A stretch of DNA of 64,000 nucleotides from an uncultured Actinomycetales bacterium (GCA_964242885.1 CAXTBU010000001.1:22454-86453); one strand, 5' to 3'; shown: positions 6,552-61,161, counted from the first letter of the stretch. Made by a program: numbers and translations. The notes: generated by a model from the sequence alone, not told the origin.

Positions 6552-6603
6552 CGCGGGCGGGACGGCAGGGCGCCCGCTCATCCGGTCTCACCGCAGTGGC
6601 CAC

Positions 6604-7025: not shown

Positions 7026-7043
7026 GACCCACTCAGACGTCCC

Positions 7044-7081
7044 GACGGGGCGACCGGTGCGCAAGCACCGGTCGCCCCGTC
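7044..7081 (+). terminator. Intrinsic terminator-like hairpin after csp (17-bp perfect stem, GCAA tetraloop, no T-tract)
   Basis: gacggggcgaccggtgc-gcaa-gcaccggtcgccccgtc, read directly. Confidence 0.6.
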
Positions 7082-7193
7082 TGGTGTCTGGAGCAGCTCG
7101 CCGCGTTGTCCTCGGCCGAGTGGATGGCGCGGCCGCAGAGGTGACCGCGTCCTGTGTCGCCGTCGGTAGGCCTCGTCGGCACCGGCAGTGGCC

Positions 7194-45146: not shown

Positions 45147-46205
45147 GTGCTCGGAGCAGAGACCGGCAGCGACCTGCCGGCCGCCGGATCGCTCCCCGGT
45201 CGGCCCCCGGTGAAGGTGACGGTCGCCGTGGCGGCTCACAACGCGGGCCGCTGGTTGGCGGAGACGCTGGAGTCGGTCCTCGCCCAGACGGAGACGGACT
45301 GGACGTGTCACATCGTCGACGACGGCTCCACCGACCAGACGGCGGAGATCGCGGACGGGTTCGCACGGCGGGACCACCGGTTCCACGTCGTGCGCCAACA
45401 GAACACCGGTGTCTCGGCTGCCCGGAACCGGCTGCTGGAGCTGACCCGGGACGACGGCCCCTACGTGGCGGTCCTCGACGCCGACGACACCTGGCTCCCG
45501 GATGCGCTCCAGGTGATGTGCGGGGTGTTGGATGCGGATCCCGGAGCGGTCGGAGTCCAGTCGCTGGCCGAGTACATGGACGAGGACTCGGTGCCGATCC
45601 GCCCGGGCGAACACCCGTTCGTCCAACGCCGCAAGTCCAGCGTCCGTGGTGACCGCGTCGTACCGGCGCACTTCGGGGACGGGATGGGCTTCGCCGAGCT
45701 CGTCGTCGGCAGTGGGCTGTACCCGCCCGCCTCGATGCTGTTCCGTCGCTCCGCGATCGAGGCCGCCGGCCGGTACGACCCCGGCTACCGGGCGCAGGGC
45801 GACTGGGAGATGTACATCCGGATGAGCCGCTTCGGGCACTTCGCGGAGCTGGACCGACAGACGGCCTGGTACCGACTCCGCGAGGCCAACCTGACCGGTG
45901 ACCGGTCGAAGGTCCACCTGTTCCAGGCCCGGCTCCTACGGAAGACGTGGGAGCAGTCGGCTCCCGGCAGCGAGCAGCGCCGCGTGACCGAGGTCGCCTA
46001 CCGCCACCGGCAGCGCCAGTTCGCCCGGCGCTTCTCCGGACCGGCGCAGTCGGCCCTGGTCGGCCGGCACCCTCGCCTGTTCGCCGCCAACGCTGTGCTC
46101 GCTGTCTGGTACGGCGCTCATTCGCTCCTGCGAAGGCCTCCCGTCCCGGTCGTCCGAGCGACCCGTGCGCTGTCCAGGGTCCAGTCGAGCCGCTGGGCGA
46201 ACTGA
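45147..46205 (+). CDS. Glycosyltransferase family 2
   Basis: VKVTVAVAAHNAGRWLAETLESVLAQTETDWTCHIVDDGSTDQT...VAVLDADDTW; AGGAGG RBS 45135-45140, GTG 45147. The only biosynthetic gene on the plus strand; 3' end overlaps the convergent GT4. Confidence 0.75.
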   Translation: MLGAETGSDLPAAGSLPGRPPVKVTVAVAAHNAGRWLAETLESVLAQTETDWTCHIVDDGSTDQTAEIADGFARRDHRFHVVRQQNTGVSAARNRLLELTRDDGPYVAVLDADDTWLPDALQVMCGVLDADPGAVGVQSLAEYMDEDSVPIRPGEHPFVQRRKSSVRGDRVVPAHFGDGMGFAELVVGSGLYPPASMLFRRSAIEAAGRYDPGYRAQGDWEMYIRMSRFGHFAELDRQTAWYRLREANLTGDRSKVHLFQARLLRKTWEQSAPGSEQRRVTEVAYRHRQRQFARRFSGPAQSALVGRHPRLFAANAVLAVWYGAHSLLRRPPVPVVRATRALSRVQSSRWAN

Positions 46206-47432
46206 CCGTGGGCGCTCGGCCCGGGCCGGCGATCCGGGGTCACCGGGCGTCGTTCGCCTGACCCGGTCGTAGATGTCCGCCACGCGGGCGAGCAGGTCAG
46301 CCCGCTCGAACCGCGACTCGACGTGCGCCCTCGCGGCACGCGACATCCTCAGCAGGCCTTCGGGATCGTCCAGGGCCGCCCCGAGGGCGCGTCCGAGGGC
46401 GGCGACGTCACCCTCGGGCACGAGGACACCCGTCGAGCCGTCCAGCACCGCCTCGGGCAGGCCCGCGTGCCGGTAGCCGATCACCGGCCGGCCGGCAGCA
46501 GACGCTTCCAGCGAGACCACCGGCAGGCCCTCCGTGTCGCCGCTCGAGGCCGTCCGGGACGGCATCGCCACCACCGAGGCCGACCGGATGGTCTGGACCA
46601 CCTGGGGCGTCGGCAGGCTGCCCAGGAAGCGTGCGTCGACCCCGAGGCGGCGAGCCTGCTCCTCCAGCTGCGGGCGGAGTCGGCCGTCGCCGACCACGTC
46701 GACCCTCGGCCGGCGGTCCAGGCCGGAGACAGCGTCCAGCAGGTCCGCCAGACCCTTCTTCTCCACCAGCCGCCCGACGAAGACCACCGGCCCACCGGGC
46801 ACGGGCGCCGACCACGGGATGGCCGAGGTGTCGACCCCGCAGGCGATGACCGAGATCTTCTCCGCCGGGACACCTCGTGCGACGAGCCGGTCACGCAGGA
46901 ACGAGCTGACCGTGATCACCGCCGCCAGTCGCCGGACGACCTCGGCCCAGTGGTCCACCAGCAGGGTGTTGGCGGTGCGTCCGCCACGCAGCGACTCGGG
47001 GTCCTGCGTCACGTCGTACCCGTGGAACGTCGCCACCAGGGGGACGTCCCCTCCCGCAGCCGCTGCCGACACGAGCGCGGCGTCCGGGCCGAAGTGGGCG
47101 TGCAGGACGTCGGGGCGCAGGGACCGCAGGACGTCCCGAGCTGCCGCGGTGACCATCCGGGCCGGGGGGACGCGGAGCCGGTACCCGGCGAACTGGCGGG
47201 CGCGACCCAGCACGGAGCCGGATCGCAGCAGGTGGACGGGGACACCCGGAACCGCCAGCGTGGGTTCGCTGATCGAGGAGGCGAGCGCCGCCACCCGGTA
47301 GCGGGGCATCTCCACCAGGTGGTCGCGGATGAACGTCTCCGAGAGCGCGAGGAAGTCCTCCCGGAACACCAGCGCGCGCGGGGCGTTGGGCGCCCCCCCG
47401 AGCGCAGGCCGGTACGCGTCCTCGGCCCTCAC
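45936..47432 (-). CDS. Glycosyltransferase family 4 (paralog of 43769-44968), long C-terminal tail of uncertain reality
   Basis: VLHAHFGPDAALVSAAA...VVFVGRLVEKKGLADLLDA...SGDTEGLPVVSLEASAAGRPVIGYRHAGLPEAV; GTG start 47430-47432 overlapping upstream GT2 stop. Confidence 0.75.
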   Translation of the reverse strand: MRAEDAYRPALGGAPNAPRALVFREDFLALSETFIRDHLVEMPRYRVAALASSISEPTLAVPGVPVHLLRSGSVLGRARQFAGYRLRVPPARMVTAAARDVLRSLRPDVLHAHFGPDAALVSAAAAGGDVPLVATFHGYDVTQDPESLRGGRTANTLLVDHWAEVVRRLAAVITVSSFLRDRLVARGVPAEKISVIACGVDTSAIPWSAPVPGGPVVFVGRLVEKKGLADLLDAVSGLDRRPRVDVVGDGRLRPQLEEQARRLGVDARFLGSLPTPQVVQTIRSASVVAMPSRTASSGDTEGLPVVSLEASAAGRPVIGYRHAGLPEAVLDGSTGVLVPEGDVAALGRALGAALDDPEGLLRMSRAARAHVESRFERADLLARVADIYDRVRRTTPGDPGSPARAERPRSVRPAARLDPGQRTGRSDDRDGRPSQERMSAVPDSEHSVGGEQARVPADQGRLRRSGEAPGELALPVAVGDLGHAALLAAGSRLLPRLP

Positions 47433-48325
47433 GCGCGGGACCTCAGCCCGGAGCGCTGCTCCCGGATGTAGCCGACGGAGTAGAGCACGTCCCACAGGGT
47501 GCGCAGGTTGCGCGACGCCTGCTCGTGGTCACCGCGCCTGTCGCGGACAGCCACGGCCAGGCCGGCTCGCACGCCGCGGGGCACCAGCGCGACCAGCGAT
47601 TCGACGCGGAGCGGAGTGGCCCCGTCGTCCTCGTAGCGCCGCACCAGCGCCGCGTTGCTCCGTCCGTACCGCAGCTGCTGCTCACAGGAGGACACCAGGC
47701 CCGTCCTGGCCCGCCACCGCATCAGCGGTCGGCGGTCGACGGCCAGGGATCCGTGCCCGCCGAGCTGGATCCGGAAGCACAGGTCCGCGTCGCCGCCGCT
47801 ACGGCCGACGTCGAAGCCGTCGACCGCGACGAGGACGTCGCGCCGGACCGTGAGGTTGCAGGTCGCGTAGTAGGGGAGGAACCACGGGGTGTCGACGTAG
47901 CTGGCGACGTCGAATATCTGCAGGCCGACCGCTGCCAGCTCGGCGGTGGAGCCGCCGCCGACCACGACGGTCCCCGTCGTGGCCATGGCGACCGACGGCC
48001 CGTCGAACAGTCCGCGCACCGCGTCGGCCCAGCCCGGCTCGGGACGACTCCGCACGTCGACGAAGCCCACCAGGTCTGTCCTCAGCTCGGCCCACCCGGC
48101 GTTCCGCCCGGCGTAGGGCCCCCGCCCCGGATTGGCGACGACCACCGCGCCCAGCCGGGTGGCGACAGCGGCCGTGTCGTCGGTCGAACCGTCGTCGACG
48201 ACGAGGATCTCGTCCACGGCGGTGGTCTGGGCCCGAAGGAGCTCGAGGAGTCCCGGCAGCTCCCCGGCGGCGTCCCGCACCGGGACGACCACGCCGAGCG
48301 TCCGTGGCGCAGGCGCGTCGCTCAT
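47429..48325 (-). CDS. Glycosyltransferase family 2
   Basis: MSDAPAPRTLGVVVPVRDAAGELPGLLELLRAQTTAVDEILVVDDGSTDDT; ATG 48323-48325 overlapping wzx stop (ATGA). The upstream part of the 594-aa track ORF is rejected. Confidence 0.75.
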   Translation of the reverse strand: MSDAPAPRTLGVVVPVRDAAGELPGLLELLRAQTTAVDEILVVDDGSTDDTAAVATRLGAVVVANPGRGPYAGRNAGWAELRTDLVGFVDVRSRPEPGWADAVRGLFDGPSVAMATTGTVVVGGGSTAELAAVGLQIFDVASYVDTPWFLPYYATCNLTVRRDVLVAVDGFDVGRSGGDADLCFRIQLGGHGSLAVDRRPLMRWRARTGLVSSCEQQLRYGRSNAALVRRYEDDGATPLRVESLVALVPRGVRAGLAVAVRDRRGDHEQASRNLRTLWDVLYSVGYIREQRSGLRSRA

Positions 48326-49941
48326 GCAGCCGACCGGCGACGGCGCAGCACCGTGCGGAGTTCGTTGATCTCCGTGCGCATGAACCCCAGGGCCAGGGCG
48401 CCGTAGACGATGACGCCGACCGCCACCTGGACCAGGGTCACACCGGGACCTGTGCGGTCGGCGTCCAGCAGCGTCGGGGTGAACCAGGCTGCCGCGAACA
48501 TGGGGACGCACAGCACGGCGACCCTTGCGTTGTCGGCAAGCACGCTCCGTGCCCTCAGTCCGACCAGACGGCAGGCGAAGTGCAGGGTCGGCGTCATGAA
48601 CGTCCACGCCCGGATCAGCACCGCCACCGCCACACCGGTCGCGCCGCCCACCAGCACGCCCGCCACCATCAGGGCGATGCCCACGAAGAACGACACGAGC
48701 CCGATGCGGAACATCAGGCCGGTCCGGTTCTGGGACTGGAACAGCCAACCCACACTCGTGGAGATGCACTGTGGGATCCCCGCGAAGCACAGGATCATCA
48801 GCAGGGGAACGGTGTCGGTCCACTGGTCGCCCCACAGGAGCGGGACGGCACCCGGCGCGACAGCCGCCAGACCCACGAGGACCGGCACCGTGGCCAGGTT
48901 GATCAGTCGCACAGCTCGGCGGTAGCCCCGCGCGACCCGCTCGCGGTCGTCTCCCATGGCCGCCAGGGCGGGGAACATCACACCGCCGAGCACCTGCCCG
49001 ACCTGCTGCACCGGCAGGAGCATCAGTTGGTAGGCCTTGTTGTACAGGCCCAGGGAGGCCTGTCCGACGAAGCGCGCGATGAGGAAGTTGTCGCCGTTGC
49101 GGCCCCAGTAGTTGACGACGTTGAACCCCAGCTGCCCCCCGGAGAACAGCCAGATCTTGGGCAGCGACTCCCTCGAGATGAAGTGGTGCGGACGCCACGG
49201 AACCATCGCCCACGACAGCGCAGACGAGACGATGCTGGCGACAGCCGGCCCGAGCACCAGCGCGTACACACCGAGGTCGCCGGCAGCTCCCGCGATCGTC
49301 ACGCCGAAGCTGACGGCCGTCGAGACGACGCCGATCACGGCCATCTTCTTGAGTTTGAGCTGCCTCTGGAGCAGTGCGCTGTGCACGCCGCCGATGCCGA
49401 ACAGGAAGCTGAGCCCGGCCAGCGGAGTGAGGAGTGTCAGCCGGGGATCCCGGAACAACAACGCGACCAGGGGGCCGGACACCGCGAGGAGGAGCGTGAA
49501 GACCACGCCGCCGAGAGCATTGATCCAGAAGACCGTCGAGAGGTCACGCTCGGTCGGGTCCCGTAGAGCGATGAGCGCCGACCCCAGGCCGAGTTCGAAG
49601 AAGAGGACCGCGAACCCGGTGATGACGTAGACGCTCGCCATGGTCCCGTAGTCGGCTGGGGCCAGCAGACGTGCCAGGACCAGACCGGCAGCGAACTGGA
49701 TGCCCTGGCCACCCAGCTTGCCGACCAGGGACCACTTCGCCCCGTTGGCGACAGCACCCGTCAGTCCAGCGTCCGCGCGCAGGCCCCCCGACAGGACGGC
49801 CGGCGTCCCGGAACTGCCGGGGCCCGGGTCGGGGTGGTCGACGACGCCCCGGTCCTGGGCGCCCTCGACCGCCGCCACCGTCAGGGTCGTGACGTCACCA
49901 GACTCGGGGGCCGATCTGTCGGCCGGGTCGCGGTCAGGCAT
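48322..49941 (-). CDS. wzx: Wzx-type polysaccharide flippase (MOP superfamily, polysaccharide biosynthesis protein)
   Basis: ~12-14 TM helices; KWSLVGKLGGQGIQFAAGLVLARLLAPADYG...; ATG start 49939-49941. The upstream part of the 644-aa track ORF is rejected. Confidence 0.75.
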   Translation of the reverse strand: MPDRDPADRSAPESGDVTTLTVAAVEGAQDRGVVDHPDPGPGSSGTPAVLSGGLRADAGLTGAVANGAKWSLVGKLGGQGIQFAAGLVLARLLAPADYGTMASVYVITGFAVLFFELGLGSALIALRDPTERDLSTVFWINALGGVVFTLLLAVSGPLVALLFRDPRLTLLTPLAGLSFLFGIGGVHSALLQRQLKLKKMAVIGVVSTAVSFGVTIAGAAGDLGVYALVLGPAVASIVSSALSWAMVPWRPHHFISRESLPKIWLFSGGQLGFNVVNYWGRNGDNFLIARFVGQASLGLYNKAYQLMLLPVQQVGQVLGGVMFPALAAMGDDRERVARGYRRAVRLINLATVPVLVGLAAVAPGAVPLLWGDQWTDTVPLLMILCFAGIPQCISTSVGWLFQSQNRTGLMFRIGLVSFFVGIALMVAGVLVGGATGVAVAVLIRAWTFMTPTLHFACRLVGLRARSVLADNARVAVLCVPMFAAAWFTPTLLDADRTGPGVTLVQVAVGVIVYGALALGFMRTEINELRTVLRRRRSAA

Positions 49942-50939
49942 CGACGGAGGCGCCGGCCCGGATGACCGTCGAGGCGTCGATCCCGTCGAGCAGCGCCACG
50001 TCCGCGGGATCGACCTTGCGGGCGAAGGGCGCGTTCGCGGCGCGCGCCTCCCGGATGGTCCTGGCGTCGACCGGGCGCGGGTGGGACTCACCGTTCTCGA
50101 ACCGGCTCCAGGTCGTGCGCCCGGAGCGCACAGGTAGCCCTGTGAGGTGGGCCAACGTCTGCAGGTAGGCCTCGTCCGGGATGTAGGTGCGCCTGAAGTG
50201 CGCCGACAGTTCGGGTCGGTCGTGGTGCAACCCGAGGATGCCCTCGAGCACCGCACGCGAGACGCCGAGCCACTGGGCGCCCTTCCAGCAGCCGATCTCG
50301 TCGATCACCGCCGACCGGTGCCGGATCCCGATCCCGTACCCGAGTCCGCGCGGCAGGTGCGCGAGCCAGATGGTGTGCTGCCACTTGTCGAATCCGTACC
50401 ACCACGCAGCCTTCGCGACCCGACGCAGGCCGCCGCGCACGACACGGTCGAACGCGGCAGAACGTGCCGGCGAGACGAAGGTGAACCGGTAGCGGTACCT
50501 CGAGGTGTCAGTCATCCGGTCGGCCTCGATGATGCCGGCGGTGCCCTCGGCGACGACGTCGTCTTCCCACGCGGCCAGGTCCAGCACCGGATAGCACTGA
50601 CCGGAGATCGCGACGAACCAGTCCCCGTCGGTCTTCGCGGCGGCCTCGAACGCCTCGATCATCCCCTCGGTCATCTCCCAGGACCCCCACCGCATCGCGA
50701 TGTGGCTACGGAACAGCTGCCCCCCGGCCGCCTGGACCTCGTCCGCGGAGAGGAAGCCGTCCGGCTCGGCGTGCCGGACGAGGACGATCGACCCCGGCGA
50801 CAGCGTCCTGATCCGCCGAACGAGGCGGAGCACCAGCTCGGGCTGGTGGTGCGCCAGAACGATGTAGCAGAAGGTCGGCCGGTACGCCGCCCCGGAACGG
50901 GCGTGTGGCGTACCGGCCTGGTCGCTGTGCTGGCTCATC
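49934..50939 (-). CDS. Glycosyltransferase family 14 (core-2/I-branching enzyme, Branch domain)
   Basis: RPTFCYIVLAHHQPELVLRLVRRI...MRWGSWEMTEGMIEAFEAA...FVSPARSAAFDRVV; GGAGGA RBS then ATG 50937-50939. Confidence 0.65.
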
Positions 50940-51097
50940 GGGGGTGGTCCTCCAGGGTCGCCCGGTGGCGCGGCGTCCATCGTCGGTTTCCCAGCCCCGG
51001 CGCTGGTCGGTCCGGAGATCTCGCTGCGGGTTCCGGAGACTGAGACAGTACGCGGCCGTCCGACCCGCTCGGCGGGTCGACCGGACTCCGCCTGTCC

Positions 51098-51967
51098 TCA
51101 TCGCAACTTGACCGCCAGCCGCCATCGCAGCGCCTGGGCCAACGCGACAGCGGATCTGGGCCGCTGGAGGAGTCCCCGCATCCCGGTGCGCAGGGCGACG
51201 ACGGCGCTGCGACGGTCCGGGGCCTGCCGCAGCACGTCCCAGGCGGCGACGGCGGCGATGTCCGCCACCAGTTCCTCGTCGAACCACTGTGAGCCCTCGA
51301 ACATGCGGACCACCGCGCTGCGACCGTCCCGCATCAGCTCGGCGTCCCCGGACACCTGACCGCCGTGTTCCAGGTAGGTACAGGTGACCTCCGGGACGAC
51401 CAGCCCGGTGCCCCGCTGGAGGAGCCGGACCCAGAACTCCAGGTCCGCTCCCCGTTCGAGGTCGGCGAAGCCGCCGGCGGCCAGTGCGGCAGCGCGGTCG
51501 ACGACCACCCCGCTGGGCAACACTGGGCTGTCCGGCCAGATGACCGCCCGCGGGGTGAGCTCGAACGGTCGGCGCCCCGGGTAGCCGACGAGCTTGCCGC
51601 TCGGCACCGCACGTCCGACGGACCCGACGAGGACACGTCCGGGCAGGTGCGGAACCACCGTCGCGAGGTGGTGCGGCAGCCAGGTGTCGTCCGAGTCGAG
51701 AAACGCGACAGCAGCCGTCGAGGACTCCCGCAGCCCCGTGTTGCGCGCCGCCCCCTCCCCCGCGTTCAGCTGTCGGATGACTCGAGCGCCCAGTCGCTCA
51801 GCCAGCTCACCGGTCCCGTCGGTGGAGCCGTCGTCGACGACGACCACCTCCGCTGCACAGACAGGGGACTGGTTGAGCGCCGACAGCACAGCCCGTCCCA
51901 CCAGGTCGACCCGCTGGTAGGCCGGGATCACCGCGGTGACATCGGCGACGGTCACTGCTGCGCTCAC
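51098..51967 (-). CDS. Glycosyltransferase family 2 (module A)
   Basis: VTAVIPAYQRVDLVGRAVLSALNQSPVCAAEVVVVDDGSTDGTGELAERLGARVIRQLNAGEGAARNTGL...FLDSDDTWLPHHL; GTG start overlapping LbH stop. Confidence 0.8.
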   Translation of the reverse strand: MSAAVTVADVTAVIPAYQRVDLVGRAVLSALNQSPVCAAEVVVVDDGSTDGTGELAERLGARVIRQLNAGEGAARNTGLRESSTAAVAFLDSDDTWLPHHLATVVPHLPGRVLVGSVGRAVPSGKLVGYPGRRPFELTPRAVIWPDSPVLPSGVVVDRAAALAAGGFADLERGADLEFWVRLLQRGTGLVVPEVTCTYLEHGGQVSGDAELMRDGRSAVVRMFEGSQWFDEELVADIAAVAAWDVLRQAPDRRSAVVALRTGMRGLLQRPRSAVALAQALRWRLAVKLR

Positions 51968-52590
51968 CGTGCGTCCTGGACGCCGCTGTCCCGCTTCACG
52001 GAGCGCCGATCGGCGGTGCGGACGACTCGGGCCGGGACGCCCACTGCCAGGGCGCCCGGCGGCACGTCGCCGCGCACGACTGCCCCGGCGGCGACGACGG
52101 CCCCGTCCCCGATCGACACGCCCCGCAGCACGACAGCGTTGGCACCGAGCCAGACGTCGTCGCCGATGCGCACCGGGCTGACCCGGTAACCGTCGCCCGC
52201 GCCCGCCAGGTGGTCCTCGTCGTGGATCGAGACCCGCTCGCCGAACCGACAGCGGTCCCCGATCACCAGGCCCGCCAAGACCGCGATGGTGCAGTCGCGG
52301 TTCACGTAGACGTCGTCGCCGATCGTCAGCGGGCCGTCGACGAACGCGCTGAACCCGTCGGCCAGGACGAGCCCTCGGCCGCGCGTGAACGATCCCCTCG
52401 TTCCGAACCGGATACGCGACCCGCGCCCGAGTGCGATCGGCGGTCCGGCCAACTGCGGGGTCAACGCCACGGCTGCCAGGAACCGCAGACGACCCAGGAC
52501 CCGGTCCAGATCCGCCGCCCGGCCCGCGGGTACCGGGCCTTCACGGACAGGTGGCGACGACGCCGCACCCGTTTCGCCTGTGCGGGGCAT
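51964..52590 (-). CDS. Sugar O-acetyltransferase, left-handed beta-helix (hexapeptide repeat) family (module A)
   Basis: IGDDVYVNRDCTIAVLAGLVIGDRCRFGERVSIHD...IGDDVWLGANAVVLRGVSIGDGAVVAAGAVV (hexapeptide repeats). Confidence 0.75.
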   Translation of the reverse strand: MPRTGETGAASSPPVREGPVPAGRAADLDRVLGRLRFLAAVALTPQLAGPPIALGRGSRIRFGTRGSFTRGRGLVLADGFSAFVDGPLTIGDDVYVNRDCTIAVLAGLVIGDRCRFGERVSIHDEDHLAGAGDGYRVSPVRIGDDVWLGANAVVLRGVSIGDGAVVAAGAVVRGDVPPGALAVGVPARVVRTADRRSVKRDSGVQDAR

Positions 52591-52902
52591 GCGGCGGTTC
52601 CTCCCTGGACGCTTGGCCGGCGGTCGACCGCCGTGAGATCGAGCGCCGTCAGATCGAACGCCGGCTCTGGTGGACCCGCCCCGACTGCCAGCCGGCGCGA
52701 GGACTCGGACAGTACCCGACCACGTACTCCTCGCGGTTGATGCAGCACGGCCGCCGGGGACGCCCGATCCGGGCGGTCACCTGTCAGCACGGCCGCCGCC
52801 CGCGACCGCCGTACCCTCGAGCCGGTCCCGCGGCGCCGCGGCCGTCACCTGACCACCGCCCGCGCCGGCAGTCGTTGCTGCCGCCACGACCCGGGAGTCA
52901 CC

Positions 52903-54105
52903 ATGACCACCGATCGCCGCCCAGCAACGCGTCGCCTGCTCGCAACAACCGTCGTGGCAGGCGTTGCCCTCGCGCTGGGTGCCTGCTCCGACGCGGGCAC
53001 CGCCCCGTCCAGCTCGACTGCCGCGTCGCCTCCCGCCACGACGCCCGCTGCACGGGCGACCCGGACCCCGCCCAAGCTCCCCAGCGACCTCGAGCGGGGC
53101 GCGGGCGGTCGGGTCGGAGTCGAGGCGATGACCCTGGCCGCCGGCCCGCTGGCACCGGCCGGATCGTTCTGGCGGCAGCAGGTCGGCGCTGCGCCGATCG
53201 CCGACGACAGCGCCGAACAAGTCGCCGACCTGAGCAAGCAGGTCGCCGACCACTGGGGCGGGATCGCCGCGTTCAACGCCTGGGACTACAACACGACCGT
53301 GGTCACGGTGCCGGCCGACCAGCCGCGCGTGGACGTGGTCTGGGACGACTGCCAGCACAAGGGGTACACACCCGGCGGGCTGTACGGCAAGAACGGCCAG
53401 TTCGTCGACGTGCCGATCCCGGACAACGTGCGCACCGCAGGCGGAACCGACAAGGAGATCACCGTCTGGTCGCCTTCGACCGACCAGCTCTGGGAGTTCT
53501 GGATCGCCAACAAGAAGGACGACGGCTGGCACGCGTGCTGGGGAGGCCGGATGGACGAGGTGTCGACCGGCCGCGGCTATTTCCGCCACAGCTTCGGTGC
53601 GACCGCGACCGGCCTGCCCAACGCGTTCGGCATGGTCAGCTTCGCCGACGTCCGCGGCGGCAGCATCGACCACGCACTGTCTCTCCAGGTCATCGGGGCG
53701 GCGGACTGGTGGAAGATCTCGTGGCCCGCGCAGCGCGGTGACGGGGACGGCACAGGGCGGATCGAAGAGGGCACCAGGTTCCGACTCGACCCCTCCGTCG
53801 ACGTCGCCCAGCTCGACATCCACCCCCTGGCGGAGCTGATCGCCCGGGCCGCGCAGCGTTACGGGTTCGTCGTCACCGACCGGTCCGGAGCCGTGGCGGT
53901 GCTCGGCGAGGGCGGGAACTCGCTGTCGGCCAACGGTGTCGGGAACCCCTGGGAGGACCTGCTCGGCGACACCAAGAACTACGACGTGCTCAGGAACTTC
54001 CCGTGGGACCGGCTGCAGGCGCTCCCGCACGACTTCGGCAAGCCGGCAGCCCCCGCGTCGCCCTCGTCCTCGGCTTCGCCGGCAGCCTCTCAGACGGCGG
54101 ACTGA
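52903..54105 (+). CDS. Secreted lipoprotein of unknown function with Pro/Ser/Thr/Ala-rich linkers
   Basis: Signal peptide + lipobox (VVAGVALALGAC), linker SSSTAASPPATTPAARATRTPP, C-terminal tail KPAAPASPSSSASPAASQTAD. Globular domain with no motif I recognise. Confidence 0.6.
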   Translation: MTTDRRPATRRLLATTVVAGVALALGACSDAGTAPSSSTAASPPATTPAARATRTPPKLPSDLERGAGGRVGVEAMTLAAGPLAPAGSFWRQQVGAAPIADDSAEQVADLSKQVADHWGGIAAFNAWDYNTTVVTVPADQPRVDVVWDDCQHKGYTPGGLYGKNGQFVDVPIPDNVRTAGGTDKEITVWSPSTDQLWEFWIANKKDDGWHACWGGRMDEVSTGRGYFRHSFGATATGLPNAFGMVSFADVRGGSIDHALSLQVIGAADWWKISWPAQRGDGDGTGRIEEGTRFRLDPSVDVAQLDIHPLAELIARAAQRYGFVVTDRSGAVAVLGEGGNSLSANGVGNPWEDLLGDTKNYDVLRNFPWDRLQALPHDFGKPAAPASPSSSASPAASQTAD

Positions 54106-54178
54106 GTTCCGGGGCCCGTCACTCGCTGGTCAATCGTGCTTCCCTGCAGTGACTACTGGGCCGGACGAGGGAGTGCAC

Positions 54179-56239
54179 GTGACGATGTCCCAACGCATGC
54201 GAGGGTTGGCGGCCGCGACGGCCGTCACGACCCTGGCGCTGGCTGGCTCGGTGGGAGACCCAGCGGGCGCTGCCCCGTCCGCGTCCGTTGGACCTCGCTC
54301 CTCGACCCGGTTCGTCTACTCGATCAACCCGACCCTCCCCGTGCCGGACGCGGGGGCGGTGGCTGTCGACAGCACGACGGGCACCGCCTACGTGAGCTCC
54401 ACAGCCGCCGGGCTGCCAGCCGCAGCAGTCGTCGACCTCGCGCAGCGCAGGGTCGTCACGACGATCGCCGGGGCCGCCGGGCTGAGCATCGTCGTGGACC
54501 CCGCACGCCAACGCCTGCTCGCCACCACCAACTCGGGTTTCTCGGTCTACTCGACCACCACGCGGCGCCGGGTGTTGACGGGCCCACGCGTGCCCGGCAA
54601 CCAGGACCTGCGGGGCCAGGCCGCACTCGATGCGGTGACCGGGACGGGGTACCTCACCGTGACGACCATCCCGAACCCGGACTTCACCGGCGTGACGCCG
54701 ATCGACGCGCGGACCGGCTCCAGCGACTTCACCGGGTTCGGGGCCCGGGGTTGTGGCGGGGGCCTCGGCATCGATGCGGTCCGGCGCCACGCCTTCCTGG
54801 CCACCGACCTGGCGCTCACCCGCTTCGACCTCGGCGGAGAAGGCGCCGGGGACCGACCGTCGGTCACGCTCGGAACCCCCGGCGATCGATTCCCCTGCGT
54901 GGACACCGAAGTCCCGCTGGTCGTCGATCCTGCGACCGGGGTCGTCTGGTTGTCCGGCGGCGGGCGACTGTTCGCTGTCGACGGCTCGACGATGCGGGTG
55001 CTCACGACGCTCGATGTCGAAGCGGATCAGCTGGCGGTCGACGTGAGCAACCACAGCGTCTATGCGCTGCGCGGCGCCACGCTGACGGTGGTCGACGCGG
55101 CCACCGGGAAGGTCGACACCCGCTTGACGCTCCCCCGTCCGGCCGTCCACGTGGCCGTTGATCCGGTTCGCCACGAAGCCGTGGTGAGCGACCCGGTCGG
55201 CGTCACCACCGTCGACCAGCGCGCTCCCGCCACAGCGGTCTCCGGGGGCGGGCAGGTCGCCCACCCCGGCGACCGGTTCCTCGCGCCACTGAGCGTGTCG
55301 GCGACCCGTGCCGACGGTGGACCCGCCGCCGGCGTACCCGTTCAGTTCCAGGTGGTCGGCGGTCCGGCGACCTTCGAGGGCGGCTCGCCGGTGACGAACG
55401 TCGCCACCGGCGCCGACGGCCGGGCGTCGTCGCGCCCACTCCTCGCCGGGGCGACGTCGGGCGCCGTGACCGTGCGGGCGGTGGTGACCGGTGCCCCGGC
55501 CGTCTCGTTCAGCTTGGCGGTGACTCCTCGGCCGGCGCCGCCACCGGCCTATGCGGACACGACAACGGGGGCCACCGGCCAGCTCCAGGTGCCCGGACCG
55601 GACCCCTACGCCTACGGCTCCCTGACCGGCTCGGTCCGCACCTCGTCGGGTCAGCCGGTCGCCTACCGCCGCCTCGTCGTGGACGTGGTCGAGCACGCGA
55701 CCTTCGACTCACGCGATCCGGTACGTCCCGACCAGGTCTTCACCGACGCGGCGGGGTCCTTCACCACCCCGCGCGTCGTCGCACCCGGGAACTTCGGACC
55801 GGTCCTGGTGACAGTTGGAGGCGATTCCGTCCAGGCGGCCGGGTGGCTGCTCGCCAACCCGGACCCCGACCGTCTGGCAACGGACCTGGCGGTGAACGTG
55901 GCTGGTCCTTCCTCACTCGCGCTCGGACGGTCCGGTTCGGTGACCGTGACGATCACCAACCGCGGGACGGTTCCCCTCGCCACGGGGGACGTCCTCGCTG
56001 GCATCTCGGCCACGCCCGGCCTGCGGTTCGGCACCGGTCCGGCGGACGCCCTGTTCGCACGCGGGCAGGTGGTCGTGGTCGACCCGGGCGCTCTGCCGGC
56101 CGGCGGACGTCGCTCGTTCTCGGTGCCCGTCGTGGCGAGCGCGCGGGGGAACGCTCGCCTGACGGCGGGTGTGGTCGCCGGCGTCCGCGACTCCCGGGCG
56201 GCCGACAACGCGGCGGCCGCTGCCGTGTCGGTGCGCTGA
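54179..56239 (+). CDS. Secreted YVTN-family beta-propeller repeat protein with C-terminal DUF11/Ig-like conserved repeat domain
   Basis: Signal peptide MSQRMRGLAAATAVTTLALAGSVGDPAGA; repeated ...VAVD/VVVD/AVDGST... blades (YVTN-like); C-terminal LAVNVAGPSSLALGRSGSVTVTITNRGTVP (DUF11-type). GGGAG RBS before GTG 54179 / ATG 54185. The upstream part of the track ORF is rejected. Confidence 0.6.
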   Translation: MTMSQRMRGLAAATAVTTLALAGSVGDPAGAAPSASVGPRSSTRFVYSINPTLPVPDAGAVAVDSTTGTAYVSSTAAGLPAAAVVDLAQRRVVTTIAGAAGLSIVVDPARQRLLATTNSGFSVYSTTTRRRVLTGPRVPGNQDLRGQAALDAVTGTGYLTVTTIPNPDFTGVTPIDARTGSSDFTGFGARGCGGGLGIDAVRRHAFLATDLALTRFDLGGEGAGDRPSVTLGTPGDRFPCVDTEVPLVVDPATGVVWLSGGGRLFAVDGSTMRVLTTLDVEADQLAVDVSNHSVYALRGATLTVVDAATGKVDTRLTLPRPAVHVAVDPVRHEAVVSDPVGVTTVDQRAPATAVSGGGQVAHPGDRFLAPLSVSATRADGGPAAGVPVQFQVVGGPATFEGGSPVTNVATGADGRASSRPLLAGATSGAVTVRAVVTGAPAVSFSLAVTPRPAPPPAYADTTTGATGQLQVPGPDPYAYGSLTGSVRTSSGQPVAYRRLVVDVVEHATFDSRDPVRPDQVFTDAAGSFTTPRVVAPGNFGPVLVTVGGDSVQAAGWLLANPDPDRLATDLAVNVAGPSSLALGRSGSVTVTITNRGTVPLATGDVLAGISATPGLRFGTGPADALFARGQVVVVDPGALPAGGRRSFSVPVVASARGNARLTAGVVAGVRDSRAADNAAAAAVSVR

Positions 56240-56284
56240 CCCGAGTGGGGAGCGGCGGGCTCGGGCCCCCACTCCCCTCCCGGG

Positions 56285-57304
56285 TCAGGCCTGTCTGTGA
56301 CCGGGTGACCCCAGGCGTTCCGCGGCCGCGGCGGCGTCCAGCCGGTCCAGCACGGCGGGCGCGGACAGTTCGACCTTCCGGACGAACGGCCGCCCGGCGA
56401 CCCGCGCGGTCTCCACGTCGTCCACGGTGACCTCCCGGGGGTGCGGGTCGGAACCGGTGAAGTGCTTCCACGACAGCGAGCGGTCCGCCACGGTCAGGGC
56501 CGGGTCAGAACACACGATCGTCTGGAAGTAGCCCTCGTCCGGGATCAGCGACCGCTCGAAACGCTGCCGAACGGCAGGGTCAGCTGCGTCGGCTGTGAGG
56601 ACGGCTGACGCCGCCGCGCGGTCGAGGGCCATCCACTGCTCGCCGTACCAGGGCGCCCAGGCAGATCGGACCGGCGCGGGGAGTCGGCGACCGACCATCC
56701 ACGGCAGTCCGCGCGGCATCTCGTTGACGGCCCACCCGACCTGCAGGCGGCTCCCCCAGCGATACCAGGCCGCGCGTGCCGCCCGACGCAGGAACGGATG
56801 CGCCCAGCGCTCAGGGTGGGTGCTCGGCAACGCCGTCCAGCGGTAGGTGTAGCGGCGGGTCAACCAGTCCTCGCGCTCCATGGTCCGGGTCTCCCGGCGG
56901 GTCGGATCCAGCGGCCTGGCCGCCACCCACGCGTTCACCCCGCTGGCCACGAGCTCGTCCTCCCACGCGCCGAGGTCCCGGACGGGGTAGTCCTGGCCCG
57001 AGACGAGCACGGTCCACTGCGGGTCGACGTGCTCACGAACCCACTCGAGCGCTTCCAACTGGGCGGCCACCATCGCCCACGAGCCCCACGTGATGGCCGT
57101 CGTGCTCACCAACTCCCGCGTGCGCGACGGGAGGTCGACTCCGTCGAACAATCCTGGGCGATCGTGGCGCAGGACGACCTCCGCCGACGACGAGGACTCC
57201 GTCACCGCGCGTGCCAGTCGCGCGACCAGCTCCGGCTGCCGGTGGCAGAAGACGAGGTAGCAGAACCGGGGACGACTCTGAGCCCGGAACACCGGCGCGC
57301 TCAC
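56285..57304 (-). CDS. Glycosyltransferase family 14 (core-2/I-branching enzyme) (module B)
   Basis: RPRFCYLVFCHRQPELVARLARAV...ITWGSWAMVAAQLEALEWV; GTG start 57302-57304 overlapping GT2 stop (GTGA). Confidence 0.65.
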   Translation of the reverse strand: MSAPVFRAQSRPRFCYLVFCHRQPELVARLARAVTESSSSAEVVLRHDRPGLFDGVDLPSRTRELVSTTAITWGSWAMVAAQLEALEWVREHVDPQWTVLVSGQDYPVRDLGAWEDELVASGVNAWVAARPLDPTRRETRTMEREDWLTRRYTYRWTALPSTHPERWAHPFLRRAARAAWYRWGSRLQVGWAVNEMPRGLPWMVGRRLPAPVRSAWAPWYGEQWMALDRAAASAVLTADAADPAVRQRFERSLIPDEGYFQTIVCSDPALTVADRSLSWKHFTGSDPHPREVTVDDVETARVAGRPFVRKVELSAPAVLDRLDAAAAAERLGSPGHRQA

Positions 57305-58218
57305 CGCAGACGCCCGGCGACCCGCCACCGGATGGTCTCGGCGATGGCGGACATCCCGGCGGGGTTGCGCCGAACCGTCGCGACCAGGCCCCGCACAGCC
57401 GAGCCCCGGGACTCGCGTCCGGACTGGCGGAACTCGTCCCAGGCATCGACGGCGGCCATCTTCGCCGGTAGGTCGGGGTCGAACCAGGCGGCACCGCGAT
57501 GGCGCGCTACCACGTCCCGGCGGTTGATCCTCATCTCCGTCCGGTCGCCGGAGACCTGCCCGGGGTGCTCGGTGTAGACGGAGGTGACGTCCGGGAGGAC
57601 GACCCCCGGCCCGACCTCGAGCAGGCGTAGCCACAGGTCCAGGTCCGCACCGAGCCGCAGCGTCGGGAAGCCGCCCACCGCCAGGGCAGCCTCGCGGTCC
57701 AGCACGACGGCGCCCGGGGTGAACGGACTCTGTGGCCAGATGACCTCCCGTGGGCCGATGCGCTGCACCGACCGCCACGGCGAGCCGACCCGTCGTCCAC
57801 TCGGCACGCCGCGGGCCGTGCTGGCGACGAGAACTGCCCCGGGTGTGTGGGGCATGACGACGTCCAGGTGGTTGGGCAGCCACTCGTCGTCGGAATCCAG
57901 CAGCGCGACCCAGCCGGTCCGGGCGGCGCGCAGGCCGGCGTTGCGGGCCGCTCCCTCCCCGCCGTTGGGCTGGCGGACGACCGTCGCGCCGAGACTCTTT
58001 GCGACGTCACCCGTGCCGTCGGTGGAGCCGTCGTCGACCACGATCACCTCGGCCGGACGTCGTGGCCGCTGGGACAGCGCCGACAGCACTGCCCGCCCGA
58101 TGAAGTCGACCCGCTGGTAGGCCGGGATGACGACGGTCACGTCGCTCAGCTCCCCCGACGCCTGGACCAGGCCCTGGACTCGGGAGTCCTCCTGGTCGCC
58201 GGCCGCGTGGCCGGTCAC
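57301..58218 (-). CDS. Glycosyltransferase family 2 (module B)
   Basis: VTVVIPAYQRVDFIGRAVLSALSQRPRRPAEVIVVDDGSTDGTGDVAKSLGATVVRQPNGGEGAARNAGL...LLDSDDEWLPNHL; GTG start overlapping LbH stop. Confidence 0.8.
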   Translation of the reverse strand: MTGHAAGDQEDSRVQGLVQASGELSDVTVVIPAYQRVDFIGRAVLSALSQRPRRPAEVIVVDDGSTDGTGDVAKSLGATVVRQPNGGEGAARNAGLRAARTGWVALLDSDDEWLPNHLDVVMPHTPGAVLVASTARGVPSGRRVGSPWRSVQRIGPREVIWPQSPFTPGAVVLDREAALAVGGFPTLRLGADLDLWLRLLEVGPGVVLPDVTSVYTEHPGQVSGDRTEMRINRRDVVARHRGAAWFDPDLPAKMAAVDAWDEFRQSGRESRGSAVRGLVATVRRNPAGMSAIAETIRWRVAGRLR

Positions 58219-58802
58219 GACGCGACGGCCGGGTTGTCGGTGACATCCCGGCGGCGCCTGACCAGGCGGGCCGGGTTGCCCGCGACGATCGACCAGGGTT
58301 CGACGCTCGACGTCACCACCGAGGCTGCCCCCACGATGCTGCCTCGGCCGATCGTGCACCCGGGCAGGATGGTCGTTCCCGCGCCGATCCAGACGTCGTC
58401 CTCGATCACGATCGGCCAGTCGTCGCGAAAGCCCTGCGCGTTCATCGGCACGTCGGTCGACCCGAATTCGTGACTGCTGGACAGGAGCACGCACCGCGGT
58501 CCCATCATCACGTCGCGCCCGATCGTGACGGGGCCGATGACCAACGCGTCCAGGCCGATCGCCGACCTGTCGCCGACCGAGACCCCACGGCCGGACCCGA
58601 ACCACGCGCCGTGCTCGATGTTCACGTCGACGCCGCAGGAGTCGAGCATCCGGGAGGCGAGCTGGCCCCGGACGGCCTTCGCCACCCCTCCGCCGGGCCG
58701 TGGCGACCAGGGGAGATGACGAGCGAGGAGAAGGTATGCGCCGGCTGCCACGTCCCGACGTACCGAAGACGCCCGCCCGTTCCCCACCGCCGACCTGGTC
58801 AC
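58215..58802 (-). CDS. Sugar O-acetyltransferase, hexapeptide-repeat (LbH) family (module B)
   Basis: VGDRSAIGLDALVIGPVTIGRDVMMGPRCVLLSSSHEF...IEDDVWIGAGTTILPGCTIGRGSIVGAASVV. Confidence 0.75.
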   Translation of the reverse strand: MTRSAVGNGRASSVRRDVAAGAYLLLARHLPWSPRPGGGVAKAVRGQLASRMLDSCGVDVNIEHGAWFGSGRGVSVGDRSAIGLDALVIGPVTIGRDVMMGPRCVLLSSSHEFGSTDVPMNAQGFRDDWPIVIEDDVWIGAGTTILPGCTIGRGSIVGAASVVTSSVEPWSIVAGNPARLVRRRRDVTDNPAVAS

Positions 58803-60274
58803 CCCGCGGAGTCTGCCGCACCACCGCGCCCGCTCCGTGCATCCCCGGCGACCCGGTGGCCGGGCGGCTCACGTCGCCCGACCGTCGCCGGCGCCAGCAC
58901 CACACCGGCCAGCAACCACAGGAGGAAGTTGGGCAGCGGTGTACCGAACGGGCTCAACATCGCGCCGGCGAGCCAGGCAACCGACGCGCCGAGCAGGACG
59001 ACCCGCCACCCCTGGTGCTCTGCGTCGCGGGTGCGGGTCACCACCCCGCGCAGCGGGCCGAGCGCCAGGGCGGTGACGAACAACAGCAACCCGGGCACAC
59101 CGAGCTCCGCGCCACGGGACAGCAGGACGTTGTGGACCTCGAGATGCGTCGCGGTGATCGGGTAGTCGCGGGCCTGCCGGACGAAGTCGACACCGTGGTC
59201 GACGAACTGCTGCCAGCCGATCCCGGTCAGCGGGCGTTCTTCCATGATGCGCAGCGCGGCGTTGTTCGAGTTCTGGCGGTCCCAGATCGGTCGCTGGTCG
59301 TTCACCCTGGCGTTCACACCGTTGCTCAGGGCCGGCACGAACGTGAGCAGTGCGCCGACAGCGATGGTGAGGCCGACGACGACCGTCGGGAGGTACCTGC
59401 GCAGCCGAGGGACGATCACTCCGACCAGCAGGACACTGGCGGCCGCCCCGACCCACACGGACCTGGTCAGCGTGAGGAGGACTCCGAGCGCACACAGCAG
59501 CACCGCGAGCACGGAGACGTATCGCCACCAGGTGCGGAAGCGGACGGCCGCGAAGCCGGCGGCGAAGCCGACCTGGACCATCACCACGCCGTTGGCGACC
59601 GACTCCAGGAACGGCCCGCGGGCCCGGCCGAAGTGGATCCCGACGGAGCTGTCGGCGATGTACCGGGGAAAGATCAGTGCGCGCGGCCCAGCGAGCTCGA
59701 ACAGGGCGGTCAGGCCGAGGTACAACGCCATCAGGACCGCGAACTTGAGGAAGAGGTCCCGCCGCGCCGGGTTGGACAGCACCAGCGGGGCGAGCACGAA
59801 CAGGACGAACGGGATGACCAACCGGTCCAGGAGCGCGAACGCGCCGACACCACTGGTGAGGCTTCCGGCACGCTGTGCCGAGTCGAGGGCGATCACGACG
59901 AGCGCGAGCATCGCCAGGTGGACGAACCCGACCTTCACCTTCCGCTGCTGCCACGTTCGCCTGTCGAGCACCAGCAGGACGACGAAACCCGCGAAGAACA
60001 GGCGGTCGGGTCCGATCGGGAGTCCGACCAGTCCCGAGTAGCCGGACAGCATGTTCAAGCCGAGGAACGCCAGGAAGAGCCAGACGTAGACCGGGAAACC
60101 GCGAGCGGCCAGAGCCGGCGACGGCCCGCCCCCGGCTGCCGGCAGCTGTCCCGGGCCACCCACCACACCGCCCGTCACCGACTCCCGCACGTCGTCCGAG
60201 CGGCCGGCGCGCCCGACCGGATGGGCCCCCGCCGTCGACCCGACCCGAGCAGCGGCCGAGGCCCCAACGCTCAC
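58799..60274 (-). CDS. O-antigen ligase (Wzy_C) family membrane protein: polymerase, ligase, or O-oligosaccharyltransferase candidate
   Basis: ~10-12 TM helices with a large periplasmic loop (VPRLRRYLPT...RVNDQRPIWDRQNSNNAALRIMEERPLTGIGWQQF...HNVLLSRGAELGVPG) typical of Wzy_C/WaaL family. Confidence 0.65.
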   Translation of the reverse strand: MSVGASAAARVGSTAGAHPVGRAGRSDDVRESVTGGVVGGPGQLPAAGGGPSPALAARGFPVYVWLFLAFLGLNMLSGYSGLVGLPIGPDRLFFAGFVVLLVLDRRTWQQRKVKVGFVHLAMLALVVIALDSAQRAGSLTSGVGAFALLDRLVIPFVLFVLAPLVLSNPARRDLFLKFAVLMALYLGLTALFELAGPRALIFPRYIADSSVGIHFGRARGPFLESVANGVVMVQVGFAAGFAAVRFRTWWRYVSVLAVLLCALGVLLTLTRSVWVGAAASVLLVGVIVPRLRRYLPTVVVGLTIAVGALLTFVPALSNGVNARVNDQRPIWDRQNSNNAALRIMEERPLTGIGWQQFVDHGVDFVRQARDYPITATHLEVHNVLLSRGAELGVPGLLLFVTALALGPLRGVVTRTRDAEHQGWRVVLLGASVAWLAGAMLSPFGTPLPNFLLWLLAGVVLAPATVGRREPPGHRVAGDARSGRGGAADSAG

Positions 60275-61161
60275 TGCCGACCGCTTGCCTCGACGTCCCG
60301 CCGGCGCCCCGTCCTGCGGTCGAGCGCGACAGCCGCCACGACCGCGAGCAGGAAACCGGCCACGAGGCCGCCCAACCCGTACCGGCCGTAGGTGCTGTTC
60401 CGGTTGTTGCCGAGGACAGTCGCCCCCTGGACGTCCTTCAGGCCGGCAGCGAGGGGCTGGTTCGTGATGGCCTCGGTGTACTGGGACCGCAGCGTCGCCT
60501 GTTGGAGCTGCACGGCGGACACCTGGACCGCGCGGTTCTGGATCGCCGACCGCAGACCCGGTGCTCGCGGTGCCTGCGACCGCAGCGTCTCCGCCCGGGT
60601 CAGCGCGAGCCGGTCCGCGTCCTGGGCCGTCTGTAGCTGAGCGAGCTGGGCCGAGACCTTGTTGTAGGCCGCGAAGTAGTTGTCGGCGGTCGCGTTCGTC
60701 CGGGTCGGCGCGTTCGCCTGGGCCTTCAGCTGGTTCGCCGCCAGCCCGGCGGCGGCCAGGGCGGTCTGCCGGGTCGTGGCCTGGACCTGGACCGACACCA
60801 GGCCGGTCTCCGGCACCGGTGACCCGGTCATCGACACGACCTCACCGGCACGACCGCCGAGGCTGGCGTTCAGTGCCGTCCGCGCCTGCGGCAGCCCGAC
60901 GAAGTGGGCGTAGGTCCCGGCCAACTGGTTCGCCGCGTAGGCGTACCCGGGGACCTGGTAGTCCTTCAGGTCCTGACTTCCGACGATCAGCCGGGTCTCG
61001 GCGGTGGTGATCTCGGGCCGGGTCGACGCGAAGGCGAGCCCGGCGACGAGGCCGAGCAGGGTCAGCAGTGCGGCAACCACCCAGTGGCGGCCGACCGATC
61101 GAAGCGGCGTTGGTGCCTCTTCCAGGACTTCCGATCGCGTCGGTTCGGTCAAGGTCGACAA
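60271..61161 (-). CDS. Wzz-like chain-length determinant (polysaccharide co-polymerase, no kinase domain)
   Basis: TM (HWVVAALLTLLGLVAGLAF), periplasmic coiled-coil-like region, C-terminal TM (GLGGLVAGFLLAVVAAVALD) then RRTGRRR; proposed TTG start 61161 after GGGGAG. The upstream part of the 725-aa track ORF is rejected. Confidence 0.55.
   Translation of the reverse strand: MSTLTEPTRSEVLEEAPTPLRSVGRHWVVAALLTLLGLVAGLAFASTRPEITTAETRLIVGSQDLKDYQVPGYAYAANQLAGTYAHFVGLPQARTALNASLGGRAGEVVSMTGSPVPETGLVSVQVQATTRQTALAAAGLAANQLKAQANAPTRTNATADNYFAAYNKVSAQLAQLQTAQDADRLALTRAETLRSQAPRAPGLRSAIQNRAVQVSAVQLQQATLRSQYTEAITNQPLAAGLKDVQGATVLGNNRNSTYGRYGLGGLVAGFLLAVVAAVALDRRTGRRRDVEASGRQ

Follow-up and report, generated by a model that had tools for sequence, protein, structure and literature searches.

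Two similar acetyltransferase-GT2-GT14 triplets in an actinobacterial polysaccharide locus: a duplicated GT2 gene and, probably, separately recruited partners

The window analysed here is a stretch of 64,000 nucleotides (nt) from an uncultured Actinomycetales bacterium (GCA_964242885.1, CAXTBU010000001.1:22454-86453), in which positions are counted from the first letter. It carries two minus-strand triplets, each made up of an LbH acetyltransferase (AcT), a family-2 glycosyltransferase (GT2) and a Branch-domain glycosyltransferase (GT14), which the first-pass annotation of this DNA had taken for the diverged copies of one duplicated three-gene module. The duplication holds for the GT2 genes, which form sister clades in 174 of 200 bootstraps, and fails for the acetyltransferases and the GT14 genes, whose two copies are sisters in none (0/200 each). 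We consider it probable that an old duplication of an acetyltransferase-GT2 unit, or of GT2 only, took place in a mosaic Wzx/Wzy locus, and that module B's acetyltransferase and the two GT14 genes were recruited separately. The pattern is one of ordinary cassette shuffling, which is normal for Wzx/Wzy polysaccharide loci.

Anatomy of the two triplets

At about 72% G+C, the window gives raw lists of open reading frames (ORFs) that are full of spurious frames. Genes were called with a codon-usage model trained on the clearest ORFs of the window, and the calls were then checked with Pfam. Order, strand and families were confirmed for both triplets, module A running from 52590 to 49934 and module B from 58802 to 56285. 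All six genes exceed the Pfam gathering cut-offs of their families (Hexapep PF00132, 27; PF00535, 23.3; Branch PF02485, 23.4). Lengths are in amino acids (aa).

AcT_A, 51964-52590, minus strand: LbH acetyltransferase, 208 aa (Pfam Hexapep, 58 bits)
GT2_A, 51098-51967, minus strand: family-2 glycosyltransferase, 289 aa (PF00535, 87.5 bits)
GT14_A, 49934-50938 (alternative ATG at 50980), minus strand: Branch-domain glycosyltransferase, 334 aa (Branch, 36.5 bits)
AcT_B, 58215-58802, minus strand: LbH acetyltransferase, 195 aa (Hexapep, 53.4 bits); its start overlaps the stop of the Wzy gene (GTGA)
GT2_B, 57301-58218, minus strand: family-2 glycosyltransferase, 305 aa (PF00535, 99.3 bits)
GT14_B, 56285-57304, minus strand: Branch-domain glycosyltransferase, 339 aa (Branch, 59 bits)

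The GTGA overlaps that had been described between AcT and GT2 in both modules, and between GT2 and GT14 in module B, are present in the junction sequences. The gap between GT2_A and GT14_A, given earlier as about 158 bp, measures 159 nt to the ATG at 50938 and 117 nt to that at 50980. A GGAGGA Shine-Dalgarno sequence lies 9 nt before the former start, which is also the one used in the source's own 334-aa product (P0403). GTGA overlaps occur at six of the 11 same-strand junctions of the locus, and a seventh, between the Wzx flippase gene and the GT2 gene that follows it (GT2_47k), is ATGA. Because this is the standard junction of the whole locus, the overlaps shared by the two modules are uninformative on shared descent.

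The pairs differ widely in how alike their members are. An estimate by eye had put all of them at roughly 40-60% identity, a range into which only the GT2 pair falls (BLASTP, 56%, E 2e-105); the GT14 pair reaches 35% (E 2e-47) and the acetyltransferase pair 34% over 157 aa (E 6e-16). The GT14 motifs quoted in support of the duplication (FCY...H...WGSW) are subfamily-wide, with Y25, H30, W84, G85 and W87 invariant or nearly so in the alignment. The comparison is similar at the nucleotide level, where a sensitive blastn search of one module against the other gave a single long match, within GT2 (51221-51944 against 57421-58144, 68% over 731 nt). Apart from this there were two short patches of 59 and 27 nt at GT14 motifs, and no match in the acetyltransferase genes.

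Unequal rates of evolution do not seem to account for these differences. Identity of the window's genes to their orthologs in related genomes is 70-75% for AcT_A, 80-89% for AcT_B, 75-79% for GT2_A, 71-88% for GT2_B, 68-88% for GT14_B and 87% for GT14_A. Between paralogs it is 56-64% for GT2 and 37-41% for the acetyltransferase and GT14 pairs. Rates among orthologs are thus alike in all six genes while identity between paralogs is unequal, which argues against the three pairs having been duplicated together. Sister pairs throughout, DNA similarity across the block and divergence in proportion to rate, by which the duplication of a three-gene block would be recognised, are not what these modules display.

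The GT2 pair

Trees were built by neighbour-joining on Kimura distances with 200 bootstraps. In the GT2 tree the A clade is monophyletic in 200/200 and the B clade in 189/200, and the two are exclusive sisters in 174/200. A database search with GT2_A returned its orthologs at 75-88% identity and then a second group at 55-59%, which contains GT2_B (P0017). GT2_A and GT2_B are true paralogs that come from a real duplication. At least five related genomes each hold both copies, and hence the duplication predates the divergence of these genomes. The first-pass annotation would have counted as refuted if the paired proteins were no closer to each other than to random members of their families; the GT2 proteins are closer, as sister clades, and the acetyltransferases and GT14 proteins are not.

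None of the 31 invariant positions of the subfamily is altered in either GT2 copy; the DD and DSDD motifs are among them (invariant aspartates D45, D46, D91, D93, D94 and D175). Fixed differences between the A and B clades are concentrated in residues 111-200, where there are 14, with seven in each of the other thirds. From the conserved nucleotide-binding half one would expect the two enzymes to share a donor or to use similar ones, and from the diverged middle third to differ in their acceptors. The earlier proposal that an acetylated sugar is added twice, in different linkage contexts, would be compatible with this, and we count the retained invariant residues together with the middle-third differences as supporting one sugar in two linkage contexts.

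The acetyltransferase pair

In a tree of 57 acetyltransferase sequences, AcT_A and AcT_B are never sisters, and AcT_B ranks 55th of 56 by identity to AcT_A. A search with AcT_A found 2,106 proteins at E <= 1e-8; the best 120 of these 2,106 all score at least 90 bits and do not include AcT_B, which scores about 60 bits by BLASTP. Among the matches listed, the nearest named homologs of AcT_A are from Kineococcus and Pseudokineococcus (51-58% identity). With phmmer the two proteins score 47-48 bits against each other, and each scores about 70 bits against solved maltose/galactoside O-acetyltransferases of Firmicutes, over the C-terminal LbH core. Each is therefore closer to the solved enzymes than to the other, and the pair fails the sister test. 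AcT_A and AcT_B are best described, from these comparisons, as non-sister members of one family.

It is the A type that is found beside the GT2 genes of the outgroups. The proteins in question (P0142 in locus L086; P0146; P0170 in locus L167) are 57-67% identical to AcT_A, which would make AcT_A the ancestral partner type of this GT2 subfamily.

The GT14 pair

GT14_A was used in an exhaustive HMMER search of 1.84 billion representatives, which gave 1,434 clusters (at 50% identity) with E <= 0.001. The representative of GT14_B, P0257, came 9th, and P0250 (47% identity) and others ranked higher. A word-indexed search with GT14_A was less sensitive, giving nine matches and missing GT14_B. In a tree of 53 GT14 sequences A and B are sisters in 0/200. 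P0250 is the partner of GT14_A in 188/200, and outside its own orthologs GT14_B is closest to P0253 (45%). Accordingly placed by tree and ranking, GT14_A and GT14_B would belong to different GT14 lineages that are not sisters. The contexts of P0250 (locus L087) and P0253 (locus L169) lack the AcT-GT2-GT14 module, and the LbH protein of L169 is not AcT_B-like. GT14_B is present in every relative that we examined.

The AlphaFold model of GT14_A has a mean predicted local distance difference test score (pLDDT) of 83.2 and a predicted template modelling score (pTM) of 0.82. Its top structural matches are 2gam (C2GnT-L, E 1.4e-10, TM 0.60) and 6ejb (XylT1, TM 0.59), and the next fold class consists of other GT-A folds at TM <=0.44. 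GT14_A is thus predicted to have a GT-A fold closest to solved GT14 structures. The metal-independent apparatus of C2GnT-L comprises a catalytic glutamate and an Arg/Lys pair that binds the diphosphate. D255-E256 and R307-K308, the candidate counterparts of these residues, are invariant in 32 members of the GT14 family, including both copies of the window.

The N-terminus of GT14_A differs among orthologs. Those in L084 (14970-15060) and L088 (~5880-5960), and P0122, have an N-terminal tandem 'VTQSP' repeat that the window copy lacks, and residues 1-16 of the model have pLDDT <50. The presence and absence of the repeat among orthologs indicates a variable N-terminal tail.

Relatives and the recombination boundary in module A

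A common frame is seen in the related loci L001, L082/83, L084/85, L088, L091/94/102 and L168. It reads WecG-GT4-Wzz-like-Wzy-(AcT_B-GT2_B-GT14_B)-variable divergent genes-(AcT_A-GT2_A)-X, where X is the third gene of module A. X is GT14 in three loci (the window, L084 and L088), where the same spacer, roughly 160 nt long, precedes it. In L001, L082/83 and L091/94/102 it is a GT2 gene (GT2x) that overlaps GT2_A; GT14_A is missing from L001 and L082/83. The GT2x of L001 and L082 is the ortholog (60-62%) of GT2_47k, which in the window lies after Wzx. The window and L084 therefore carry the spacer, GT14_A and Wzx between GT2_A and that GT2 gene. The features concerned are as follows.

Spacer between GT2_A and GT14_A, 50939-51097, minus strand: 159 nt, boundary between conserved AcT_A-GT2_A and the variable GT14_A-Wzx block
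Wzx flippase, 48322-49941, minus strand: Pfam Polysacc_synt_3, 264 bits; 8-nt overlap of its start with the GT14_A stop
GT2_47k, 47429-48325, minus strand: GT2, ATGA overlap with the Wzx stop

Nucleotide identity to L084, in 300-nt sliding windows, is 72-78% from WecG to GT2_A and 82-88% from GT14_A to the plus-strand GT2 gene of the locus. The change falls in the spacer region, with 66/100 identical positions over 51115-51018 and 78/88 over 51018-50931. This step inside the spacer indicates that GT14_A belongs with Wzx to the variable block, and that 'module A' straddles a recombination boundary. Module B behaves as one unit in the comparison with L082 (84-90% identity, against 72-83% in the flanks). 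The window's Wzx is 84% identical to the Wzx of L084 and L088 and 50% identical to that of L001 and L082, so that there are two deeply diverged forms of the flippase. Judged by this distribution, Wzx appears to travel with GT14_A.

The spacer itself was also considered as a relic of a displaced GT2x. This was rejected, as comparison with the 5' end of GT2x gave only chance matches of 7-11 nt. Its predicted RNA fold is no more stable than that of shuffled sequence (z = -0.01), and scans of 49.8-58.95 kb for sigma-70 promoters and intrinsic terminators found neither.

Outgroups and occurrence of the triplet elsewhere

The GT2 genes of two outgroup loci, L086 and L167, fall immediately outside the A+B clade. 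In both loci, the gene order is A-type AcT, GT2 and NTP_transf_5, with the same 4-nt overlap between AcT and GT2, and GT14 is absent from these AcT-GT2 units. In L086 the unit lies directly after Wzy. L167 also shows an independent duplication of the same GT2 subfamily with its NTP_transf_5 partner (3226-7124), the copies being divergently oriented and adjoining fragments of a DDE transposase.

A metagenome scan with the GT14 alignment yielded 79 GT14 loci, which were screened with hidden Markov models built from our own alignments. The same-strand LbH-GT2-GT14 triplet was found among them in close relatives of the window only. Of the unrelated GT14 loci, 18 had flanks of 2.5 kb or more on each side; GT2 was nearby in eight of these, LbH in two and both in one. 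The three families do occur together in other arrangements, namely GT14(+)-LbH(-)-GT2(+) in L089, L090, L092 and L169, and GT2-GT14-LbH in L096. Fusion proteins are found in other genomes as well: GT2 with LbH in P0040, whose GT2 part is 48% identical to GT2_A, and GT2 with GT14 in P0266 and P0267, the latter confirmed by Pfam. Tandem GT14 domains are seen in P0256, and in P0261 by alignment of its halves. The fusions hint at functional coupling among the three families. Overall, these surveys point to some recurrent association of the families and to no mobile triplet; the idea of the triplet as a widespread cassette was dropped, given that the same-strand form is confined to close relatives and that one of the 18 unrelated loci has both partners.

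Origin of the two triplets

One account of two triplets with the same family order, strand and 4-nt overlaps, that of the first-pass annotation, is that a single AcT-GT2-GT14 block was duplicated whole and its copies diverged where they lay, AcT and GT14 changing faster than GT2. The GT2 genes are a true sister pair, as this account expects, and GT14_B is within the ten best of 1,434 clusters for GT14_A. We nevertheless regard it as very unlikely. AcT and GT14 copies are not sisters in any bootstrap, their divergence among orthologs is not above that of GT2, and AcT_B is in fact the slowest of the six; nucleotide similarity outside GT2 is limited to the two short motif patches. In addition, GT14 is missing in the outgroups, GT14_A lies beyond a recombination breakpoint at which relatives (L001, L082/83) have a GT2 gene instead, and the GTGA overlap is generic to the locus. 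If the full triplet was duplicated, and recombination afterwards exchanged AcT in module B, and GT14 in one or other module, for different members of their families, the identical order is accounted for without coincidence. Polysaccharide loci exchange cassettes freely, this one is visibly mosaic, and exchange can be demonstrated for the third gene of module A. Such a history is still unlikely in our view, as it needs at least two family-for-family replacements, more events than the one we favour; both outgroup loci have NTP_transf_5 and not GT14 as the third gene, and neither an A-type acetyltransferase in module B nor a sister pair of GT14 genes turned up in any genome.

Two ready-made cassettes might also have been taken up independently, each from its own donor, if the triplet is a mobile unit in wide circulation. 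The other arrangements of the three families (L089/L090/L092/L169, L096) and the fusions of GT2 with LbH (P0040) and with GT14 (P0266, P0267) speak for this, but the same-strand triplet is confined to close relatives among the 79 GT14 loci, both LbH and GT2 accompany GT14 in 1/18 unrelated, well-flanked loci, and GT2_A and GT2_B are sisters that are both present in every member of the clade. We hold this to be the most improbable of the possibilities considered. A further idea is that non-sister genes were recruited convergently around the duplicated GT2 genes, so that the same order came about twice, as a three-enzyme unit under selection; we give it a small chance of being right. If it were true, the enzymes would be coupled physically or kinetically in building a disaccharide motif that is O-acetylated and beta-branched, the GT2+LbH and GT2+GT14 fusions would be an extreme form of the same coupling, and the actinobacterial GT14 subfamily, with its 1,434 clusters, would be a dedicated partner of a specific GT2 subfamily.

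An old duplication with separate recruitment thus remains the history we prefer, and it may be set out as follows. The ancestral unit would have been an A-type LbH acetyltransferase followed by a translationally coupled GT2, with Wzy immediately before them. The GT2 would then have been duplicated, alone or with the acetyltransferase, in the ancestor shared by the window's clade, to give the GT2_A and GT2_B lineages. AcT_B may then be an unrelated member of the maltose/galactoside O-acetyltransferase class, brought in by non-orthologous displacement or by separate recruitment. GT14_B was presumably recruited downstream of GT2_B, with AcT_B-GT2_B-GT14_B a stable unit thereafter. GT14_A, from the other GT14 lineage, would have arrived separately, with Wzx, in a variable serotype-like block. 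This block would comprise the spacer with its own Shine-Dalgarno sequence, GT14_A, Wzx, GT2, GT4 and GT2, abutting GT2_A at the recombination breakpoint.

Several points weigh against this history. It leaves the identical family order of the two modules as a coincidence, which an ancestral triplet with replaced members could explain. It is possible that AcT_B diverged very fast just after a duplication, although it is now the slowest-evolving of the six module genes (80-89% identity to relatives). Only two outgroup loci define the 'ancestral' module, AcT_A and GT14_A were the queries that supplied the AcT and GT14 samples, and the topologies come from neighbour-joining only.

As for function, each GT2 would add a beta-linked sugar to a lipid-linked repeat unit, and each acetyltransferase would O-acetylate a sugar of the lipid-linked intermediate. 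Each GT14 may add a further beta-linked residue by the metal-independent GT14 mechanism, after which Wzx would flip the repeat unit and Wzy would polymerise it.

These results bear on how such loci are annotated. Matching Pfam architecture and family-wide motifs mimicked a block duplication here, and it was phylogeny gene by gene, along with the relatives, that showed one paralog pair. A similar donor for both GT2 enzymes is a reasonable assumption, but the second enzyme of the acetyltransferase pair, or of the GT14 pair, should not be taken to repeat the task of the first, and GT14_A is best grouped with Wzx in the variable block that defines the serotype. According to a 2019 survey (PMC6843789), characterised GT14 enzymes did not yet include any from bacteria. 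With its two diverged GT14 genes, both of an uncharacterised bacterial subfamily and set in a defined context, the locus could be of use for a first biochemical characterisation of a GT14 from bacteria.

The surrounding locus

The polysaccharide locus spans from about 37 kb to the end of the window and lies mainly on the minus strand. Upstream of it are ordinary chromosomal genes (an opp ABC transporter, ychF, rmuC, ispH and xseA). There are no tRNA genes in the 64-kb window. Besides the genes given above, the locus contains the following.

62588-63388, minus strand: WecG/TagA-family transferase, first in transcription order
61308-62609, minus strand: GT4, after the WecG/TagA-family gene
60271-61080 (start possibly further upstream), minus strand: Wzz-like coiled-coil protein with two transmembrane helices, no Pfam match
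58799-60274, minus strand: Wzy-type polymerase (Pfam Wzy_C, 63 bits), directly upstream of module B
54173-56239, plus strand: g54173, 688 aa, between the modules; no Pfam match, weak YncE beta-propeller match
52903-54105, plus strand: g52903, putative lipoprotein of 400 aa, signal peptide with LGAC lipobox, divergent from module A
45936-47432: GT4 (GT4_b), after GT2_47k in transcription order
45147-46205, plus strand: GT2
43769-44968: second GT4 (GT4_a)
42416-43690: pyruvyl transferase
41502-42368: gene of no assigned function
40145-41347 and 38916-40034: two AT3 acyltransferases

Ten glycosyltransferases of the locus have Pfam support, or there are 11 with the truncated ORF g63512, which resembles only GT2 genes of L084 and L086. 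The position of Wzy is conserved in all relatives and in the outgroup L086. The Wzz-like protein, called at 296 aa in relatives, has a transmembrane helix at each end and a long Q/A-rich helical middle. The stretch from 37 to 64 kb shows no priming phosphoglycosyl transferase, and the locus continues beyond the window; in L086 a Bac_transf gene adjoins WecG.

The two plus-strand genes between the modules differ in their conservation. g52903, for which there was no Pfam, NCBIfam or PDB sequence match, adjoins module A divergently in every relative (70-75% identity), and is 51% identical in L086; it is probably a conserved uncharacterised component of such loci. g54173 is found among the relatives only in L001 (54% identity) and belongs to the variable content of the locus, and a PDB sequence search with it gave nothing usable. 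In the same slot L082 has an NAD-binding epimerase-like gene and a helix-turn-helix regulator, and L084 has nothing extra. As the content of the slot differs among the window and L001, L082, and L084, the gap between the modules is a second variable spot.

Two further paralog pairs are found in the locus. GT4_a and GT4_b are 57% identical as proteins and 67% over 996 nt. GT4_b is nearest to the single GT4 of L084 (83%), and GT4_a to the single GT4 of L082 (67%) and of L001 (63%), and these affinities to different relatives make the pair look like two allelic forms joined by recombination and not an in-place tandem duplication. The adjacent AT3 genes are a third pair (49% protein identity, 67% over 504 nt), with about the same nucleotide divergence as the GT2 and GT4 pairs.

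Comparison with known systems

The best PDB matches of both AcT_A and AcT_B fall in the class of maltose/galactoside O-acetyltransferases, which includes LacA and Maa of E. coli, SACOL2570 of S. aureus and the polysaccharide relatives WbbJ and WcaF. The best NCBIfam matches are WbbJ for AcT_A and the WcaF family for AcT_B, at scores (78.6 against a cut-off of 243, and 74.3 against 192) that lie far below these curated cut-offs. For the GT2 subfamily profile the best PDB match is chondroitin synthase K4CP, residues 375-595, its second GT2 domain (131 bits), and PglI is matched at 81 bits. Unlike enzymes of the K4CP and PglI type, GT2_A and GT2_B each consist of one domain in about 290 aa, their C-terminal region is distinctive, and they reached no NCBIfam equivalog model.

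The GT14 subfamily profile matches XylT1 and C2GnT, that is, CAZy family GT14 with the mammalian core-2/I-branching beta-1,6-GlcNAc transferases and xylosyltransferase 1. The window's proteins differ from the solved GT14 enzymes in having 11-13% sequence identity to them, and in being cytoplasmic bacterial proteins without a stem or transmembrane region.

As a whole, the region resembles the Wzx/Wzy clusters for O-antigen, capsule and exopolysaccharide. It has a Wzx of the Polysacc_synt_3 family, a Wzy_C polymerase, a Wzz-like protein with two transmembrane helices and a WecG/TagA-family transferase, along with several GT2 and GT4 genes, a pyruvyl transferase, and AT3 and LbH acyltransferases. 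Its gene content identifies it as part of what appears to be a chromosomal locus for a Wzx/Wzy-dependent heteropolysaccharide. It is unlike typical clusters of this kind in its unusually large number of glycosyltransferases. It is like them in having conserved flanks around a variable, serotype-like centre of glycosyltransferase genes, and in being mosaic among relatives, with sharp steps in identity at gene boundaries.

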